From Clostridium sp. CAG:609 (GTDB lineage Bacteria > Bacillota_I > Bacilli_A > RF39 > UBA660): a stretch of DNA of 32,000 nucleotides. The notes under the pieces were generated by a model. The model worked only from the letters and a program-made list of their open reading frames with translations, was not told the DNA's origin and did no database searches. Within the stretch, counting starts at the first letter, position 1. Every line of letters begins with the position of its first letter. Shown in pieces: positions 3,488-29,332 of this stretch. The DNA lies in assembly GCA_000438075.1 (NCBI GenBank), contig FR903525.1, forward strand, positions 1 through 32,000, given 5' to 3'. The position numbers and the translations under genes were made by a program.

Positions 3488-4420
3488 TTAATCTAATTTT
3501 TTGAATATATTTAATAACTTCATCAGATTTTTTCTTGCTTCTTCAATTGTTATAATTGCATCCAAGTCTAAAACATAGAGTCCTTGCATGTTATTAAATG
3601 AATCTATAAATTCTTTATCAAAACATGCTTTCATATACTCAAAATTTTTTATTTTTTTGTTTTCTTCTATTCCTCCAATTCTCTGACGTTCTTCTTCTCT
3701 TTTATAATTTATTAATTTTAATAGTTTATTTTTATTTTTTAATAAGTTAACTATATTTTCATTATTTGATAAAATTGTTATATCATATAAGTGTTTAACA
3801 GCATCTTTATAGTTATGTCTTATGTAGTAAAATTCACAAGCAAAGATTTTATCAACAAATATTCTTTCCAATTCTATCATTTGTATGTTAAATCCGCTTA
3901 TATCAAAATTTCTTTTTAATATTTCTTTTTCGTCTTCCGTGGCATATTTATAAACTAATGGTTCTATATAGTATGTTTTTACCGGTTCAGACACAGTAAA
4001 CGATGTCGCTTCAATTTGTATTTCTCCAGATTTATATAAATCTTTTGTGTTAAAAACACTGTCGTACTTATAAAATGATGTTATACTTCCTTTTTTATCT
4101 ATGGTTTTATCTTTAATTAATTCTAGCCCATCTATTTTATAATTTAACGCAGATTTTTTTAATCTATTTTTATTACTATTTTTGGAGTCATCTTTAATTA
4201 CTTTTACTGTTAAATCTATATCTTCTGAAAATCTTTTCATTACATTTAACGTTTTATATACTGCTGTTCCACCTTTAAAATATGCAAAATATTCTTTTTG
4301 TTTTGAAGCAAGTTCCTTTAGTATTAGACAAACATAATAATCCTTTTCTATTATGTCACCTCTTATTTTGCTTCTTTCGCTTGTAATGTATATCAAATCT
4401 TCTAATAGTTCCTTATTCAT
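3488..4420 (-). CDS. abiEii: AbiEii/AbiGii-family nucleotidyltransferase toxin (type IV TA / abortive infection)
   Basis: 310 aa. N-terminal EKDYYVC motif, then the pol-beta NTase signature FKGGTAVYKTLNVMKRFSEDIDL (GG[ST]...x13...SxDxD). Overlaps the upstream partner gene by 8 nt. Confidence 0.8.
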   Translation of the reverse strand: MNKELLEDLIYITSERSKIRGDIIEKDYYVCLILKELASKQKEYFAYFKGGTAVYKTLNVMKRFSEDIDLTVKVIKDDSKNSNKNRLKKSALNYKIDGLELIKDKTIDKKGSITSFYKYDSVFNTKDLYKSGEIQIEATSFTVSEPVKTYYIEPLVYKYATEDEKEILKRNFDISGFNIQMIELERIFVDKIFACEFYYIRHNYKDAVKHLYDITILSNNENIVNLLKNKNKLLKLINYKREEERQRIGGIEENKKIKNFEYMKACFDKEFIDSFNNMQGLYVLDLDAIITIEEARKNLMKLLNIFKKLD

Positions 4421-5063
4421 TTTTTCCCCCTAATTCATACAGTTTTTTAATCGGTTTTATATTTCCAATCTTATTTGCATATTCAAATATTTTTTCAAAA
4501 TCCAAATTATTATCTTTAATAAACTTGTATATGATTTCTCTTTCATTTTCTGCTTCTATTGGAACATTATCTTTGTTGAGAAGAATATCTAATAGTTGTA
4601 AATATAAATAATTATCTTTATTTATTTCTACTTTTGGTTTTCTTATTAAAACGCCAAGTTTTTCGTTATAATAGTCATTTTTATTTGGACATTCATTGGT
4701 AACTATAGTAATAACTCTAGGCATTTGAGTTGTTAATCCCAATTTATTAAAAACGTATGCACCACTTATATAACCTTTTAAATTTCTGTTATCATTAATA
4801 TATTTTTTGCTAATAACTTTATTAACATTTAGTTTTTTATTTCCGTATATACCTTTTGTAGGTTTATAATAAACTCCTTTCATGAATTGAAGTATTACTT
4901 TTTCTTTTACTAGTCTATTAATATACACATAAATTTTCTTTATAATTTTTCTTATATCACATTTTAATTCATTTACAAAATATTCTTTTATGTCTTCAAT
5001 AAATATTGGTTCATCATATGGACATAAATTTATATAATTTGTTAATACTTGATTATAATTCAT
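4413..5063 (-). CDS. abiEi: AbiEi-like / DUF6088-like antitoxin-transcriptional regulator (putative)
   Basis: 216 aa, immediately upstream of the AbiEii gene and overlapping it. N-terminal ...FIEDIKEYF...INRLVKEKVILQFMKGVYYKP resembles the winged-helix region of AbiEi/DUF6088 proteins. GGAGGAAATATG RBS. Confidence 0.55.
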   Translation of the reverse strand: MNYNQVLTNYINLCPYDEPIFIEDIKEYFVNELKCDIRKIIKKIYVYINRLVKEKVILQFMKGVYYKPTKGIYGNKKLNVNKVISKKYINDNRNLKGYISGAYVFNKLGLTTQMPRVITIVTNECPNKNDYYNEKLGVLIRKPKVEINKDNYLYLQLLDILLNKDNVPIEAENEREIIYKFIKDNNLDFEKIFEYANKIGNIKPIKKLYELGGKNE

Positions 5064-5810: not shown

Positions 5811-6530
5811 TTATTCATAAAATATAAATAAATATCTATCTAAACCTTGTAAATCTTTTTCAAAACTATATTTTAGGTTTAATTTGTCTACTAGAGGTTC
5901 TAGAGACTTTCTTTGATTATCTCCGGTTTCTAATGCTATTAAACCTGGTTTATTTAAGTTTTTTAAATGATTATTTAAAATATACTTGTAGAAGTATAGA
6001 CCATTATCATTTGCATATAAAGCAAGGGGTGGTTCATTATTCTTTACTATTTCTTGAACATATCCATCATACGGAATATATGGTGGGTTTGATATAATTA
6101 TATCATAGTTATTTTTTAGTGGTTCTGTCATACTTTGATTAACAAATGTAATATCTGTGTTATTAAGTATAGCATTTTGTTTTGCGACTTCTAGTGCATC
6201 ACTAGAGATATCTAATGCCGTTATGTTTGCATTTAGATTTTTTTTAAGTGCTATAGCAATACATCCTGAACCCGTTCCTAAGTCAATTATATTTATTGTT
6301 TTATTAAATATATTGGATGCATATTTTATTGTTTTATCAACTAAGTATTCTGTTTCAAATCTTGGTATTAGTACTCTTTTATCTATGGTAATTGTTGTAT
6401 TTAAAAATTCAACATTACCAATTAAGTACTGGGGTGATACCCCAGTAGATAATAAATGATTTAATTCTTCTTTAGAATATTTACTTGTTAATATATCCCA
6501 ATCGGGTTTACTTATATAATCTGGTTTCAT
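5811..6530 (-). CDS. prmC: release-factor glutamine N5-methyltransferase, with a short N-terminal domain
   Basis: SPQYLIGNVEF, VLIPRFETEYLV, the SAM motif DLGTGSGCIAIAL, and the catalytic NPPY (IISNPPYI). Start chosen at ATG 6530, behind AGAAGGG that begins right after the upstream stop codon. The track ORF extends to 6569. Confidence 0.9.
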   Translation of the reverse strand: MKPDYISKPDWDILTSKYSKEELNHLLSTGVSPQYLIGNVEFLNTTITIDKRVLIPRFETEYLVDKTIKYASNIFNKTINIIDLGTGSGCIAIALKKNLNANITALDISSDALEVAKQNAILNNTDITFVNQSMTEPLKNNYDIIISNPPYIPYDGYVQEIVKNNEPPLALYANDNGLYFYKYILNNHLKNLNKPGLIALETGDNQRKSLEPLVDKLNLKYSFEKDLQGLDRYLFIFYE

Positions 6531-6543
6531 TATTTTCCCTTCT

Positions 6544-7758
6544 TTATCTGGATCTTCCTTGAAGTTCATTTGTATACAATTTATCTAAATCTTGTGGCGA
6601 AATATATATTACTTTGCCACCTTTAGGTCTTATTTTTTCAAAACCAAAAACTATCCATATAGCATCAATTGGAGTATCAGGCATTTGAGCATGTCCATCA
6701 GTAAATATTATTTTGTTTTCTACTCTTTTAGTAAATGAATTAACTGCGATATTAAAGTCAGTTCCTCCGCCACCTTCAAATTGCATGTTTTCTATATCTT
6801 GTTCTGTTCTTATTTCATTAAAACCATAAAATTTTGTATCAAAACAACCTACTTTTAATCTAGAAGTATGTAATATATTTTTGCATTCACGAAGGAAACC
6901 ACGAAGTAAGAAGTCACTGATTGAACCACTTGTATCAAGTAATATTTCTGTTTCTGGATGAGGTTGTTCTTCTAGGTTAGCAGATATAACACCATCTTCA
7001 ATTTCCGCATTTTTATAAGACCAATCAGCATTATAAGTTATTGCTTCTTTTAAGATGTATCGCCAATCAACTATTGGTTTTGATTTACCTATATCATTAA
7101 TAGTTCTAATAACACTATTTGATGTTTTACCCCTTTGTGATACTTCTTTTAATATTTCTCTTTTTAACTTTTCAAGTTTTCTTTTTTTCTCAGCAAGATT
7201 TTCTTTGAATGAATCTTTTTCACCCATTTTTTTAGTTTGTTCTTGTTTTTCTTTGATTTGTTTTTCTTGTTCAGTTAAAGACGTTTCTTCTTTAAATTTT
7301 TTTATAGCATCTTTCCACATGTTGTGTGAATCGTGTCCAGCTTGTTCTTTCTTTTGTTCTTGCTCTTTGTCTTTTATTAGTTTTTCATAAAGTTCTTCGG
7401 CATCATAGTTAATTGCATCTTTGATATCAACACAACCTTCGACCATTTCTAATCCATCACGTTTTAAAAATTGGTTGATAACTCCATCAGTTGCAATATT
7501 CCAGGTGTATTCATCTTTTCCTTCACTTCTTAATATGTGATTGAATGCTACGTGACAAACTTCATGTGCAAAAACGAATGTCTGTTCAGAGACATTAAGG
7601 GAATTTAAAAAGTTTGGATTATAATAGATTGTCTTTCCATCAGTTTCTGCTGTTTTTATTGTAGTATCTTCTTTATATGAAACATTAGCTACTACACTTC
7701 CAAAGAATGGATATTTAACGAACATTTTTCTTTTTAATCTTTCAATATCGTATTTCAT
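6544..7758 (-). CDS. zincin-like metallopeptidase (HExxH) fused to a VWA domain (DUF2201_N + DUF2201-like; COG3864-like)
   Basis: 404 aa. N-terminus YPFFGSVV...FVFAHEVCHVAFNH...ATDGVIN (HExxH). K/E-rich linker. C-terminal VWA with MIDAS-like ILLDTSGSIS, GGGGTDF and IIFTDGHA. AAGGATAAATTATG RBS. Confidence 0.8.
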   Translation of the reverse strand: MKYDIERLKRKMFVKYPFFGSVVANVSYKEDTTIKTAETDGKTIYYNPNFLNSLNVSEQTFVFAHEVCHVAFNHILRSEGKDEYTWNIATDGVINQFLKRDGLEMVEGCVDIKDAINYDAEELYEKLIKDKEQEQKKEQAGHDSHNMWKDAIKKFKEETSLTEQEKQIKEKQEQTKKMGEKDSFKENLAEKKRKLEKLKREILKEVSQRGKTSNSVIRTINDIGKSKPIVDWRYILKEAITYNADWSYKNAEIEDGVISANLEEQPHPETEILLDTSGSISDFLLRGFLRECKNILHTSRLKVGCFDTKFYGFNEIRTEQDIENMQFEGGGGTDFNIAVNSFTKRVENKIIFTDGHAQMPDTPIDAIWIVFGFEKIRPKGGKVIYISPQDLDKLYTNELQGRSR

Positions 7759-7767
7759 AATTTATCC

Positions 7768-8163
7768 TTAAATACGTGCTAGTAATGAAAATATTTCTTC
7801 ATTTATTGTATCTTTATTTATATTTTTAGCAGTAACAATTATTACACAGTTATCTGGTAGATTAAATGTTGATATTTTTCTATGTTCTAAAAGTTCACTA
7901 AACTTTAGTTGTTCTTCTTTAGAGATAGAATCTATGTTATCAATTACTAATATTTTTGCATCTTTTGAGTTTAGGATTTCTCTTAGCCATTGTGGAGGTA
8001 AAAACTCTGTTTCTTCATAGTGACCATTTAAATTATTTGATGAAATTGACGCTGGTAACACTATTGCATTTTTAACATCTTTACTTGTTATAAAGTCCAC
8101 AAGTATGGGTGCTACATTTGCTTTTATATATGAAAATAATAATTCTTTTTTATCTTCTGTCAT
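7768..8163 (-). CDS. 131-aa degenerate, P-loop-less AAA+ core paralog of the upstream ATPase
   Basis: KILVIDNIDSISKEEQLKFSELLEHRKISTFNLPDNCVIIVTAKN aligns with HVLFLDEITNALPSIQGIAFNIVLDREVNGIWKLPDNARIVAAGN of the 8160..10010 product, needing one single-residue gap. AIVLPASISSNNLNG aligns with VFLHGPSSEGKS...LNG, so GK[ST] is lost. PPQWLREIL aligns with KPSWLKKL. The start ATG overlaps the upstream TGA (ATGA). Confidence 0.7.
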   Translation of the reverse strand: MTEDKKELLFSYIKANVAPILVDFITSKDVKNAIVLPASISSNNLNGHYEETEFLPPQWLREILNSKDAKILVIDNIDSISKEEQLKFSELLEHRKISTFNLPDNCVIIVTAKNINKDTINEEIFSLLARI

Positions 8164-10010
8164 AGACTTTTATCTCCCACTTCTGCTTCGGCAAGTTTTG
8201 CTTCAGCTATTATTTCTAATCTTTTTTCATCACCATGAGTCCATAATGTTTCAAAAATTGCTTTAAATTCGTTTCCTAACATTCCTGCAAAATCCCTTAC
8301 ATTCTCTAAGTTTTGTTCATCTACACGAGATAATCCCATTGTTGTTGCGTATCTTTCAGCAGTGTTTAGGGAAGCTATTTCTAATTCATCATAGTTTTTA
8401 TTTAATACATCATCTAGAGTTATTACTCTTTGATTACAGAATCTTACAAATTCATTTGTTATATCTTCACCAACTAGAGCTCTTAGCATCTTTGGATTTT
8501 GAGTTTTATAAAGCATTTTTGAAGCCATTTCCCATTTTCTAGGATCCGCATTGGGGTATTCACCATTATATTCACTTCTTAATGTTTGACCATTTTTATA
8601 TGCAATGTATGCATAGATTGCTGGATGAATGTTGTGTTCACTTGCCCACTTTAACCAACTTTCAGTTGTTGTTTTAATATATACATGTGCAAATCTATTA
8701 AATAGAGGTTCCGCTAATTGGTTAGCTGCTAAAGAATCTTTCATGTCATTTCCTGCAGCAACAATTCTAGCATTATCAGGCAATTTCCATATCCCATTTA
8801 CTTCTCTATCTAAAACTATATTAAATGCTATACCTTGAATACTTGGTAAGGCATTTGTTATTTCATCTAAGAATAATACATGAAGCCTTTCTGGTTCTTG
8901 TTCACATTTAGCTTCAAGTTTTTTAAGCCATGATGGTTTAACATCAATCATTTCTCCAGTACTTGCATTATAAACGCTTTTACCATTTAAGCTTTCAGGA
9001 GATGCATTACGTAAGTATATTATTTCACATGTTGGATCTATTTGTTTTACTCTGGCAGATTTACCTTCGGATGAAGGGCCATGTAAAAATACCGCTACAC
9101 CACTTTCAATAGCTCCTTTTATTATATCTTCTTCACTAACATTATCAAATGATAATCCATATGAATTTCTTTTTACTTTTACATTTGTTGATTCTCTTTC
9201 TTTATTCATATCATCTGCTTTAATGAATACCATATTTTGTGTTAAATCATGTAACATATATTTATCAAGATATTCTTTCATTTCAGATGTACTATATTTT
9301 AAGTCTGGCGCACCATTTCCAGCATATCTTATACCTGAAGCTAACCCACGTGTTGATATTAACAATCCATTTTTATTATCAACTAGCCATTTAACTGGAG
9401 TAACTTCAACCCAGACATGGTTATCATTTAAATACTTAATACCATTTGAAAGTTCAAAACAATCTTTATAAGCTTGAGCTTTAATACGAATATATTTTTT
9501 TCCACCAAACTCATATTCATCATAAGTTACTGGCATAAATTTATAATAATAATCAGGATTTTTGTTACCATCGAATGTATAAGTATTTCCAGTTTTTTTA
9601 AGTCCTTTGTAAAATTCTGTTTCTAGTATTTGTTGCATACTTGATGGTGCCGCATATTGAGGATATTCACCAAATTCAACGATATCTACTCCAGTTATTG
9701 TAGTATCTCTTTTTAAAGTTCCATTTGTTAAAAGTTCAGTAGATGATAGAACTGGACGTATCGTACCTCTACGAAGAAAACTTGAAGTAGGAACCATTTC
9801 ACCTTTGTTATTTATGCAACCTATTTTTTCATTTCCGCTGATATTTTGAGTCCAATACCAACCACGTGCTAATGCACCAAAATATATATATGCACCTGTT
9901 AAAATAGATAAATCTGTGTTTGATATATCATATCCGTAACTGTCAAATATATATTTTTCATCTCTAAATATTTGTTCAATAGATAACAAATTTATTTCTA
10001 AATCATTCAT
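8160..10010 (-). CDS. unknown ~265-aa N-terminal domain fused to a MoxR/AAA_5-type AAA+ ATPase
   Basis: Walker A LHGPSSEGKS (track residues 313-322), Walker B VLFLDE (382-387), sensor-1-like IVAAGN, and LFNRF. N-terminal region is W/Y-rich (ARGWYWTQN ... RRGTIRPVL ... VTPVKWLVDNKNGLLIS). Start is probably ATG 10010, since GTG 10022 lies inside the GGAGTGA RBS. Confidence 0.8.
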   Translation of the reverse strand: MNDLEINLLSIEQIFRDEKYIFDSYGYDISNTDLSILTGAYIYFGALARGWYWTQNISGNEKIGCINNKGEMVPTSSFLRRGTIRPVLSSTELLTNGTLKRDTTITGVDIVEFGEYPQYAAPSSMQQILETEFYKGLKKTGNTYTFDGNKNPDYYYKFMPVTYDEYEFGGKKYIRIKAQAYKDCFELSNGIKYLNDNHVWVEVTPVKWLVDNKNGLLISTRGLASGIRYAGNGAPDLKYSTSEMKEYLDKYMLHDLTQNMVFIKADDMNKERESTNVKVKRNSYGLSFDNVSEEDIIKGAIESGVAVFLHGPSSEGKSARVKQIDPTCEIIYLRNASPESLNGKSVYNASTGEMIDVKPSWLKKLEAKCEQEPERLHVLFLDEITNALPSIQGIAFNIVLDREVNGIWKLPDNARIVAAGNDMKDSLAANQLAEPLFNRFAHVYIKTTTESWLKWASEHNIHPAIYAYIAYKNGQTLRSEYNGEYPNADPRKWEMASKMLYKTQNPKMLRALVGEDITNEFVRFCNQRVITLDDVLNKNYDELEIASLNTAERYATTMGLSRVDEQNLENVRDFAGMLGNEFKAIFETLWTHGDEKRLEIIAEAKLAEAEVGDKSL

Positions 10011-10031
10011 TTTTATCATCACTCCAACTAT

Positions 10032-10060
10032 AATATACAGAATATACTTTGAAAAGTCAA
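10032..10060 (-). promoter_or_regulatory. sigma-A-like promoter in front of the ATPase gene
   Basis: On the minus strand, TTGACT (10060..10055), a 17-nt spacer, then TATATT (10037..10032), just upstream of the RBS. Confidence 0.4.
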
Positions 10061-10088
10061 TAGAACAGAGATGCTACTTAACACATAT

Positions 10089-10640
10089 TTATTGATTTAA
10101 TGAAATATCATATTTTGATATAAAGCTATCTTTCTTTTGTTCTGGTACTTCCTCATTTTTATATGCTTGTTGATATCTTGTTATTAATTCATCTTTAGAA
10201 TCATTAAGTTCTATGTAGTTATAATTGCTATTAATTTGTAAATCCCCATTATATTCTGGTACATATGAAAGTATTAAATAAGTTTTTCCTTGTTTTAGAA
10301 GTTTTGTATCACTTGGTAATATGTATTCTTTTTTACTTTTGGAAATACCTCCCATTTGAGTTAATGTTATATCTGTTAATAAATTTCCTTTTATGTTTTC
10401 TAATATAGTTATGTTATACACTGTGTATGGTTCATAATCACTATATATAGTTTCTTTGATAGAATTAATTTTTGCTACGAAAACATAGTCTACAGCACCA
10501 ACTGCTTTTTCTGGAGTAGACATATCATACACATTCAATATTGGATGATAATTAAATTTGATATCTTTATTCATATTTGATTTTACTAGTATTATTGTTG
10601 ATAACAGCAATATAATTATTATTAATAGTTTTCTTTTCAT
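10089..10640 (-). CDS. secreted/exported protein of unknown function
   Basis: 183 aa with the N-terminal signal-like sequence MKRKLLIIIILLLSTIILVKS. No motif recognised. Confidence 0.6.
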   Translation of the reverse strand: MKRKLLIIIILLLSTIILVKSNMNKDIKFNYHPILNVYDMSTPEKAVGAVDYVFVAKINSIKETIYSDYEPYTVYNITILENIKGNLLTDITLTQMGGISKSKKEYILPSDTKLLKQGKTYLILSYVPEYNGDLQINSNYNYIELNDSKDELITRYQQAYKNEEVPEQKKDSFISKYDISLNQ

Positions 10641-10673: not shown

Positions 10674-11738
10674 TTATTCTAAAGACATTCCAGCTAATTT
10701 TAATTTTAAATCTTCATTTATAAGTGCTTCAATAATAGGTTCTAAGTCTCCATCCATAACTCTATCTAGTGACATAATTGAGAAATTGATTCTATGATCA
10801 GTTACTCTATTTTGTGGATAGTTATATGTTCTTATCTTTTCAGAACGATCTCCGGAACCTATTTTTGATTTTCTTGTTGCTCCGATAGCACTTTCTTGTT
10901 CATGCATTAATTCATCATTTATTTTGATTTTAAGAAGTTGCATTGCTCTTTCTTTATTACGAAGTTGACTTCTTTCTGTTTGACAAGTTACCACTACACC
11001 AGTTGGAATATGAGTTATACGAACTGCTGAATTGGCAGTATTAACTGATTGTCCACCTGCTCCACTTGAATGATATACGTCTATTTTTAAATCACTTTCT
11101 TTAATATCAATATTAACATTATCAACTTCAGGCATAACTAACACAGTAGATGTTGATGTATGAACTCTTCCTTGTGTTTCTGTGACAGGTACTCTTTGAA
11201 CTCTATGAGAACCACTTTCATATTTTAATTTACTATATACGTTAGCACCCTTTACCATGAATTCAATTTGTGAAAAACCTCCACTTGTACCTTCAATTTG
11301 GTGAATAACTTCAATCTTCCATCCATTAGCTTCTGCATAATAAGAATACATTCTAAATAAGTCTCCGGCGAAAATATTAGCTTCGTCTCCTCCGGCAGCT
11401 CCTCTTATTTCCATTATTACATTCTTACCATCATTTTCATCCTTTGGTACTAGTAATATTTCAAGTTCATGATATAATCTATCTATTTCTTTTGTTAAAT
11501 TTTCAACATCTTCCAAAGCAATTTCTTTTAAATCTGGGTCTTCCACCATCATTTTTGCTTCTTCTAAATTATTTTTTGCTTGTTTATAAGCTTGATATGT
11601 TTTAACAGTTTCTTCTAAATCACTATGTTCTTTAGATAATTCTTTAACTTGATTAAAATTACTTAATACTTCTGGATCACTTAATTTAGTAGTTAATTCA
11701 TTATATTTTTCTTCGATTGCATCTAATCTATTAAACAT
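10674..11738 (-). CDS. prfA: peptide chain release factor 1
   Basis: 354 aa. SGAGGQSVN (GGQ), RVQRVPVTETQGRVHTS (RF1-type PxT tripeptide region), and typical RF1 length. Confidence 0.95.
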   Translation of the reverse strand: MFNRLDAIEEKYNELTTKLSDPEVLSNFNQVKELSKEHSDLEETVKTYQAYKQAKNNLEEAKMMVEDPDLKEIALEDVENLTKEIDRLYHELEILLVPKDENDGKNVIMEIRGAAGGDEANIFAGDLFRMYSYYAEANGWKIEVIHQIEGTSGGFSQIEFMVKGANVYSKLKYESGSHRVQRVPVTETQGRVHTSTSTVLVMPEVDNVNIDIKESDLKIDVYHSSGAGGQSVNTANSAVRITHIPTGVVVTCQTERSQLRNKERAMQLLKIKINDELMHEQESAIGATRKSKIGSGDRSEKIRTYNYPQNRVTDHRINFSIMSLDRVMDGDLEPIIEALINEDLKLKLAGMSLE

Positions 11739-27014: not shown

Positions 27015-27037
27015 AAAGAATCCGTTGAGGATTCTTT
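27015..27037 (+). terminator. terminator hairpin after the repeat-protein gene (left copy of a duplicated hairpin)
   Basis: aaagaatcc-gttga-ggattcttt, starting right after the TAA stop at 27011..27013. Confidence 0.65.
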
Positions 27038-27230
27038 CAGGCTGTTGACAAAGTCGTTTTTTCAAATCGGCTTTGTTACAGCCTTTTATATTTCTCCCAC
27101 TAAGATATAAAAAAAGAGCATTTTTTAGGGATTAAGTACCTAATATTTGCTCTTTTTTAAACAATTTAACTCACTTTGCTTTTTTTTAAAACTAATTTTT
27201 TTCAAAAAAGATAGTTTGTCAACAATCTGA
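27037..27230 (+). mobile_element. MITE-like ~194-bp element, copy 1
   Basis: About 95% identical to 29142..29332. Imperfect terminal inverted repeats: tcaggctgttgacaaa versus the reverse complement of tttgtcaacaatctga (14/16 matching). Internal long stem-loop aggctgttgacaaagtcg...cggctttgttacagcct, followed by ttttat. Confidence 0.7.
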
Positions 27231-29141: not shown

Positions 29142-29332
29142 TCAGGCTGTTGACAAAGTCGATTTTTCAAATCGGCTTTTTCACAGCCTTTTATATTTCT
29201 CCCACTAAGATATAAAAAAAAACATTTTTTAGGGATTAAGCACCTAATATTTGCTCTTTTTTAAACAATTTAACCCACTTTGCTTTTTTTAAAACTAATT
29301 TTTTCAAAAAAGATAGTTTGTCAACAATCTGA
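29142..29332 (+). mobile_element. MITE-like ~191-bp element, copy 2 (same orientation as copy 1)
   Basis: Aligns end to end with 27037..27230, with about 7 substitutions and 3 indel positions. Same terminal inverted repeats. Confidence 0.7.

Follow-up and report, generated by a model that had tools for sequence, protein, structure and literature searches.

What brings an ATPase, a crippled relative of that ATPase and a predicted metalloprotease together between prfA and prmC? The question is raised by a stretch of 32,000 nucleotides from Clostridium sp. CAG:609 (contig FR903525.1, positions 1 to 32,000), referred to here as the window, in which three minus-strand genes, named A, B and C, interrupt this host transcription unit. 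Gene A encodes an N-terminal recognition domain (N-domain) joined to a predicted MoxR-class AAA+ ATPase, gene B a P-loop-less paralogue of the ATPase core, and gene C a zincin domain connected by a charged linker to a VWA domain. The explanation that we favour, and to which we give about an even chance, is that the cassette is a horizontally acquired conflict module of the cytoplasm, a sensor-ATPase-protease whose specificity is fixed in the window copy and whose function we infer. Four observations suggest a role in conflict: a diversity-generating retroelement (DGR) acts on the recognition domain in relatives, the cassette is present in some strains and absent from others, its genomic position shifts between species, and an AbiE system is encoded 1.5 kb away.

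The N-domain as a retroelement target

In the commonest group of orthologues, a gene with an RVT_1 domain lies directly upstream of A. The complete order of such a DGR locus is an open reading frame (ORF) of 162-177 amino acids (aa), a bAvd-like protein, a non-coding template repeat, the reverse transcriptase, and then A, B and C. The reverse transcriptases of these relatives are 338-372 aa long, match RVT_1 (1.2e-16) and contain the DGR-type motifs LGNQSSQ and YMDD, and the bAvd match (1.4e-5) falls short of the curated cut-off. The template repeat is 80-103 nt in length and, when read in frame, contains many AAY and AAR codons; it corresponds to codons ~72-108 of A, a segment that ends in GAVRPAL. 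In six species, every mismatch between template and variable region is located at a template adenine (L003, 12/12; L013, 10/10; L020, 10/10; L026, 12/12; L029, 8/8; L031, 14/14), and in three more most of them are (L022, 9/11; L039, 7/9; L092, 11/14). Because the mismatches fall at template adenines, the A family is identified as a DGR variable protein that is diversified near its N-terminus. A previous interpretation of the window, made from its letters only and called here the sequence-only reading, had left the N-domain unassigned; this holds in that no Pfam family covers it, but its nature as a DGR variable region in relatives had been missed. The ORF of 162-177 aa in front of the Avd gene is conserved and has no Pfam match (L003:4337-4825; also in L013, L020, L022, L029 and L031), and may act as a further accessory factor in this lineage of DGRs.

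The footprint of the retroelement is also visible among strains and among paralogues. In one DGR-linked species, strain entropy peaks at residues 81-100 of A, with 0.69-0.94 bits vs a mean of 0.12, and the A paralogues in A-A-B-C-A-A-B-C arrays differ most from each other in the variable-region segment. One contig (L017 and L023) repeats A-A-B-C at least twice, with no reverse transcriptase in the stretch examined. Tandem identical copies of A in L038 and L072 are possible assembly artefacts and were excluded as evidence. Among the 50 species whose loci include enough upstream sequence, a full reverse transcriptase is found in eight, fragments only in six and none in the remaining 36, so that loss of the retroelement must be frequent. 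The most widely sampled orthologue species offers a view of this process at L078:8988-9934, where the reverse transcriptase is split and shortened (pieces of 82 aa and 187 aa) and the template/variable pair includes some non-adenine mismatches, with the variable region still the most variable segment among strains. The DGR of this species is decaying.

The window copy is the DGR-less, fixed-specificity or "frozen" version of the cassette. Neither tblastn nor HMM searches of the 32 kb gave a match to a reverse transcriptase or to Avd, and no template repeat of gene A was found there. Compared with the variable region of L003, residues 50-90 of the window protein are encoded by AT-rich DNA that has lost the GC-rich 3' end of active variable regions. 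One of the closest relatives of the window copy, L029, with 69% identity, has an intact DGR. The simplest history is that the retroelement was lost, or that the cassette was transferred without it.

Beyond the cassette, the N-domain belongs to a large family. A profile-free search at E<=1e-3 returned relatives that fall into at least 1368 clusters at 50% identity, most of them stand-alone proteins of 280-350 aa, and some fused to an A-type ATPase, to ankyrin repeats or to STAND-type NTPases. Pfam domains are almost absent from these relatives, with DUF6273 (PF19789) in 3 of 102, and A itself, for which a search with this family had been suggested, does not match it even at E<=10. A profile search with the N-domain found no relatives among PDB sequences. 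The AlphaFold model of the N-domain has a pLDDT of 80 and a pTM of 0.83, with values of only 54-72 in the variable-region part. Its WxW...G...RP[AV]L motif recalls lectin-type variable regions, and the alignment to the C-terminus of a DUF6273 protein is weak (E 0.055). In another locus (L083:242-3681), three tandem genes encode stand-alone N-domains with a coiled-coil tail (363-364 aa); no ATPase accompanies them and no reverse transcriptase lies within 10 kb.

Three predicted proteins and their place in the genome

Counted from the ATG at 10010, the ATPase half of A contains GPSSEGKS at residue 311, LFLDE at 379, VAAGN at 417 and NRF at 438, and across 20 homologues its two Walker motifs, A and B, its sensor 1 and the arginine that follows sensor 1 are invariant. 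Searches of Pfam and NCBIfam with A gave nothing significant, AAA_5 reaching 14.9 bits (E 0.027), below its cut-off of 22, and PDB sequence searches with A alone or with a 20-sequence profile found no relatives. Residues 299-592, on the other hand, match phrog_1297, annotated as "ATPase" (1.4e-47), a phage member of which passes the AAA_5 cut-off (25.6 bits), and most of the phage homologues carry PF07728. In the AlphaFold model of residues 276-616 (pLDDT 83.4), two strands, 69-73 and 78-82, stand ahead of helix 2, and a short hairpin precedes the sensor-1 strand, in agreement with the helix-2 insert and pre-sensor-1 hairpin of MoxR ATPases. The best Foldseek matches of this model are NorQ in NorQ-NorD complexes (9qhd, 9qh4; E ~1e-9, target-normalised TM 0.66-0.68), followed by CbbQ (6l1q, 5c3c) and then by dynein, CHU_0153 and RavA. 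Together, the modelled fold, the phrog_1297 match and the phage relative support the assignment of A to the AAA+ ATPases of the MoxR class. Because A itself misses the AAA_5 cut-off, the assignment rests on the fold, and the earlier description of A as AAA_5/MoxR-like can be kept for the class and not for membership in AAA_5.

The two halves of A evolve at different rates, with 82% identity to P0050 in the ATPase half and 43% in the N-domain, which is the pattern to be expected when a sensor is attached to an engine. Signal peptides and membrane segments are absent from A, B and C, and the ligand should therefore be cytoplasmic.

Residues 34-130 of B align with residues 330-442 of A (hhalign probability 88.8%, E 2.5e-6), a span that starts at strand 2 and reaches the arginine that follows sensor 1. 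B has no P-loop, and the DE of its Walker B motif has become DN; its sequence marks it as a dead paralogue of the ATPase core of A, as had been recognised before. It is kept beside A in the Bacilli loci and missing from the Clostridia loci.

Protein C exceeds the gathering scores of both DUF2201_N (4.7e-39, 135.1 bits; cut-off 23.2) and the VWA-like DUF2201 (3.1e-12, 47.1 bits; cut-off 26.4), and it matches phrog_1314 (2.9e-67). It contains HEVCH at residue 65, DTSGS at 275, GGGGTD at 329 and FTDG at 352, so that the MIDAS residues (DxSxS, T and D) are all present. With both domains above their gathering scores and an HExxH motif, C classifies as a DUF2201_N/DUF2201 zincin-VWA protein (COG3864-like), which agrees with the domain order first proposed for it, a zincin, a K/E-rich linker and a VWA domain. 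No beta-propeller was found in C. The length of the linker varies greatly between species, and C ranges from ~400 to 760 aa (L002-L077). In P0134, a deletion derivative, the A-type N-domain continues directly into the C-terminal half of a C-type VWA domain.

The accessory nature of the cassette can be read from strains of the same species. Identical PrfA proteins are encoded by contigs in which the cassette is missing (L084, L086, L087 and L090) and by contigs that contain it (L085, L088, L089, L091 and the window). In the empty alleles the order is prfA, a gene for a 183-aa protein, prmC and spoIIR, and in the filled alleles A, B and C stand between the 183-aa gene and prmC. The difference amounts to exactly 3545 bp between the stop codon of the 183-aa gene and the ribosome-binding site (RBS) of prmC: CAATAA is followed directly by AGAAGGG in empty alleles, and in filled alleles by a block that begins with ATATGTG and ends with CCAGATAA before AGAAGGG resumes. 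A 4-nt microhomology (ATAA) at the block ends makes the boundary ambiguous by 4 nt. Since it is present or absent among strains with identical PrfA, the cassette is accessory; it occupies roughly four in ten of the strain contigs of the window species that were examined. The 183-aa gene, found in both empty and filled alleles, is a resident and not cargo, a correction to the sequence-only reading, which had named it alongside the cassette.

Counting one genome per species, the A-B-C module was found at 76 loci in gut Bacilli and Clostridia. Only the conspecific L002 shares the flanks prfA and prmC, and the module lies at different genomic positions in the ~75 other species. Being strain-variable here and at other loci elsewhere, it is not the universal core locus that would have refuted the sequence-only reading. 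Its flanks in other species are heterogeneous and mostly housekeeping genes, with a few C5-methylases and helix-turn-helix regulators (140 genes, 25 species), and PADLOC matches among these genes are mostly to generic models. A comparison of the window with L002 gives dN/dS values of 0.15 (A), 0.18 (B) and 0.22 (C), against 0.26 for prmC, and the low values indicate that the cassette genes are maintained by selection. All three ORFs are intact in every filled allele.

The three genes are tightly packed, as had been noticed at the outset: the TGA stop of A lies within the start of B (ATGA at 8163-8160), and 9 nt (7759-7767) separate B from C. Near-identical A proteins have 616 aa in public gene calls, and the start of A is therefore most likely the ATG at 10010 and not the GTG at 10022. 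The RBS of prmC follows the stop codon of C (6546-6544) immediately, again as described, and the 13 nt between this stop codon and the prmC ATG equal the spacing of prmC after the 183-aa gene in empty alleles. The promoter-like element named in the sequence-only reading is present as a motif, but promoter-like sites in this AT-rich DNA are not enriched over shuffled sequence (41 found, 51.6 expected), and it is therefore listed as a candidate only (Table 1). No terminator-like site was found within the cassette. Since the cassette was inserted into the prfA-prmC unit without one, prmC must be read either through the cassette, as had been proposed, or from a promoter of its own.

Table 1. Positions of the cassette, its parts and its neighbours in the window
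Feature	Position	Strand	Description
Gene A	8160..10010	-	ORF of 616 aa plus stop; N-terminal recognition domain, predicted MoxR-class AAA+ ATPase and helical C-terminal region
N-domain of A (residues 1-275)	9186..10010	-	Family outside Pfam
Fossil DGR variable region in A (residues 50-90; GWYWTQ...GTIRPVL)	9741..9863	-	Shares homology with the relatives' variable region; AT-rich, not hypervariable
AAA+ core of A (residues 300-450)	8661..9113	-	Walker A GPSSEGKS at 9057-9080; LFLDE, VAAGN, NRF
Gene B (131 aa)	7768..8163	-	Predicted P-loop-less paralogue of the A ATPase core
Gene C (404 aa)	6544..7758	-	Predicted zincin 7384-7758; K/E-rich linker 6994-7383; VWA with MIDAS residues 6589-6951
Promoter-like TTGACT-17-TATATT in the cassette leader	10032..10060	-	Candidate; 10/12 consensus positions matched
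Present/absent block (3545 bp)	6544..10088	-	A-B-C plus 78-nt leader; from strain allele comparison
prmC with RBS	5811..6543	-	AGAAGGG 6537-6543; ATG 6530
Gene for 183-aa exported protein	10089..10640	-	Resident neighbour upstream of the insertion site
prfA	10674..11738	-	First gene of the interrupted host transcription unit; PCRF 3.9e-72, RF-1 1.2e-40

Several neighbours of the cassette deserve mention. The 183-aa protein has a signal-peptide-like hydrophobic N-terminus and a weak match to the NTR module (PF01759, 7.7e-4); its gene, located between prfA and prmC in all strains with or without the cassette, is an unusual resident of that operon. Downstream of spoIIR, an AbiEi/AbiEii toxin-antitoxin pair of the abortive-infection type is encoded at 3488-5063 on the minus strand (PADLOC, 2e-42 and 6e-94). 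This AbiE system occupies a second strain-variable slot, in which L087 and L090 have three unrelated genes instead (213, 409 and 284 aa; no Pfam match). Farther away, a ~170-nt intergenic element is present in two copies (27037-27207 and 29142-29311) that are 88-92% identical and contain two hairpins each; it has no Rfam match, and an Rfam search of the window returned no RNA family.

Proposed function and rival explanations

In the mechanism that we propose, A would form a NorQ/CbbQ-like AAA+ ring with an N-terminal recognition domain on each subunit, and the VWA domain of C would dock on this ring, by analogy with NorQ-NorD. ATP hydrolysis would pull or twist the long charged linker of C and thereby activate or position the zincin at its far end, with B probably serving as an adaptor or ring modulator. 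The N-domain would bind a cytoplasmic protein, probably a foreign one (e.g., of a phage), and couple this binding to proteolysis, the activated zincin cleaving either the ligand or host targets. In sister species, the upstream Avd, template repeat and reverse transcriptase rewrite ~13 codons of the recognition domain, which means that such a machine could be retargeted. A switch that releases or activates a protease, in defence, stress response or quality control, had already been suggested in the sequence-only reading; its domain assignments are upheld, and its protease-release function in defence stays putative.

Some results weigh against a conflict module. No model of PADLOC-DB 2.0 matches A or B, and C obtains only weak matches that reflect the composition of its linker (PbeC, 9.5e-5). 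The 140 flanking genes of 25 species contain no clear defence-island signal. A Foldseek search of PDB and BFVD with the N-domain model returned nothing at E<0.1, leaving unmatched the C-type lectin fold that would be expected of a DGR target, and residues 50-90 of the window copy show no sign of ongoing diversification among strains. Finally, related pairs of an ATPase and a zincin-VWA protein are found in lytic N4-like and jumbo phages, where a role in virion assembly has been proposed (Iyer et al., 2021; PMC7824862).

The cassette might instead be a maturation or remodelling chaperone for one host protein, comparable to NorQD, CbbQO and RavA-ViaA, with the N-domain as a substrate adaptor of fixed specificity and the zincin as a processing protease. 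It would be in keeping with such a role that NorQ and CbbQ are the closest structures of A, that the cassette is probably co-transcribed with housekeeping genes and that it is under purifying selection. We consider this unlikely, since many strains do without the cassette although their PrfA is identical, ~75 species share no client gene in its neighbourhood, and hypermutation of the recognition domain by a DGR in relatives is hard to square with a single fixed client.

It is more doubtful still that the module derives from a phage, as a prophage remnant or a moron whose native role is in virion assembly or host takeover. The matches of A to phrog_1297 and of C to phrog_1314, and the adjacency of the two genes in N4-like and PA5oct-like phages, for which the assembly proposal was made (PMC7824862), speak for such an origin, but identity to the phage proteins is just ~25-30%, the phage versions have neither the N-domain nor B, and neither the window nor the sequence that flanks 25 other loci contains phage genes. 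On only one of 2.9 million IMG/VR contigs was a relative detected, and host ABC-transporter genes separate it from the tail genes; this single prophage-adjacent locus was returned by an alignment query, A alone having given nothing.

It is very improbable that the cassette is a remnant without function, decaying while it hitch-hikes in the prfA-prmC operon. The loss of the DGR and the decay of the variable region, the deletion derivatives found elsewhere, such as P0134, and the many strains without a cassette are what a remnant would predict, but the catalytic motifs are as intact as the ORFs of the filled alleles, and the dN/dS of the cassette genes is similar to that of prmC. Least credible is that a DGR elsewhere in the genome still diversifies the window copy in trans: remote DGR targets, with template repeats elsewhere in the genome, are known (PMC7159879) and the 32 kb examined are a part of the genome, but the entropy of residues 50-90 is flat, without excess variability, across 42 strain variants, the GC-rich 3' end is gone, and neither a reverse transcriptase nor a template repeat lies within the window.

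Beyond the window, a broader claim about the conflict module is tentatively put forward, as a possibility that we hold to be somewhat doubtful. The A-B-C family may constitute a distinct and hitherto undescribed class of immune sensor, cytoplasmic and programmed by a retroelement, among the unicellular Firmicutes of the gut, in which a hypervariable domain at the N-terminus of a MoxR ATPase, possibly with a fold other than that of C-type lectins, directs a VWA-tethered zincin against invader proteins. The specificities of DGR-less copies would then be frozen ones, and a common invader that they continue to recognise would be the reason for their retention.

Sensors that are diversified by DGRs and act with MoxR-vWA modules, mainly described in multicellular bacteria, may according to published proposals be the bacterial counterpart of adaptive antigen recognition. 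The A-B-C family brings this idea, in a compact three-gene form, to abundant small-genome Bacilli and Clostridia of the human gut. Natural comparisons are available between strains with and without the cassette, between species with intact, broken and absent retroelements, and between arrayed paralogues that differ mainly in the variable region. They make it testable which ligand a hypervariable receptor of the cytoplasm recognises and by what means recognition is converted into proteolysis by a MoxR ring. For the DUF2201 zincin-VWA proteins, which are widespread and uncharacterised, and for their relatives in phages, the family also provides a hypothesis to work with.

Relation to known systems

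The systems NorQ-NorD and CbbQ-CbbO (PMC13036017; PMC9976466) offer the best structural matches for A, although no match at the level of sequence was found in PDB searches. As in C, their VWA proteins consist of an N-terminal domain, a linker and a VWA domain, and NorQ holds a finger of NorD's VWA domain in its pore and remodels the linker of NorD (Kahle et al.; PMC13036017). These systems serve metal insertion or the remodelling of one enzyme and have no protease domain. The variable N-domain on the ATPase, the dead paralogue and the retroelement are likewise absent from them.

The phage pair (phrog_1297 and phrog_1314; PMC7824862) shares with the cassette a homologous ATPase and a homologous zincin-VWA protein in the same gene order. 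In phage nACB1 a small ORF even stands between the two genes; it is unrelated to B and was ruled out as its homologue. Unlike A, the phage ATPases have ~340-375 aa, without an N-domain, and they belong to lytic phages, in which Iyer et al. described the combination of MoxR and a metallopeptidase-vWA protein.

Among DGR targets, those from the Candidate Phyla Radiation (CPR) often combine a lectin domain with an AAA ATPase (PMC10907252). The CPR proteins with an AAA/Midasin-type ATPase, as far as they are described in PMC5758913 and, for Paul et al. (2017), in PMC10907252, resemble A in uniting a variable domain with an AAA-type ATPase. According to the summary in PMC10907252, CPR targets sense through their C-terminal region, whereas the variable region here covers residues ~72-108 of a ~640-aa protein. 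These descriptions also set the CPR proteins apart by host phylum and operon partners. Variable regions are in general essentially C-terminal and of the lectin type (Roux et al.; PMC8144416), and just three DGRs with an N-terminal variable region were reported by Wu et al. (2018; PMC5758913). In our literature search, no paper was found that links DUF2201 proteins to DGRs.

The closest parallel is found in the MoxR-vWA ternary conflict systems defined by Kaur et al. (2020; PMC7159879). A joint action of DGR-diversified sensors and MoxR-vWA in conflict systems has been proposed (PMC7159879; PMC10907252), and Dore et al. (2024; PMC10907252) proposed such DGR targets as antigen sensors that signal via MoxR. 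As the N-domain is a DGR variable region in relatives, the cassette is placed beside these published systems. Both comprise a MoxR-class ATPase, a vWA partner and a third protein; in both a peptidase is the likely effector, a cytoplasmic location is predicted for the proteins and a role in sensing is proposed, and a DGR hypermutates the ligand-binding domain of one component, here in the relatives. The differences lie in the parts. The variable domain, located at the C-terminus of the vWA protein in the published systems, is at the N-terminus of the ATPase in A-B-C, and the vWA protein C is of the DUF2201_N/DUF2201 zincin type. The place of the third component, which in the systems of Kaur et al. 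is VMAP, iSTAND, FtsH or a beta-propeller fused to the vWA protein, is taken by the dead AAA+ paralogue of 131 aa. As hosts, A-B-C has unicellular gut Bacilli and Clostridia with small genomes instead of multicellular cyanobacteria, actinobacteria and Chromatiales, and the window copy has no DGR. The cassette is best grouped with the DGR-associated MoxR-vWA systems, with which it has its logic in common, built on a different architecture and represented in the window by a retroelement-less, fixed form.

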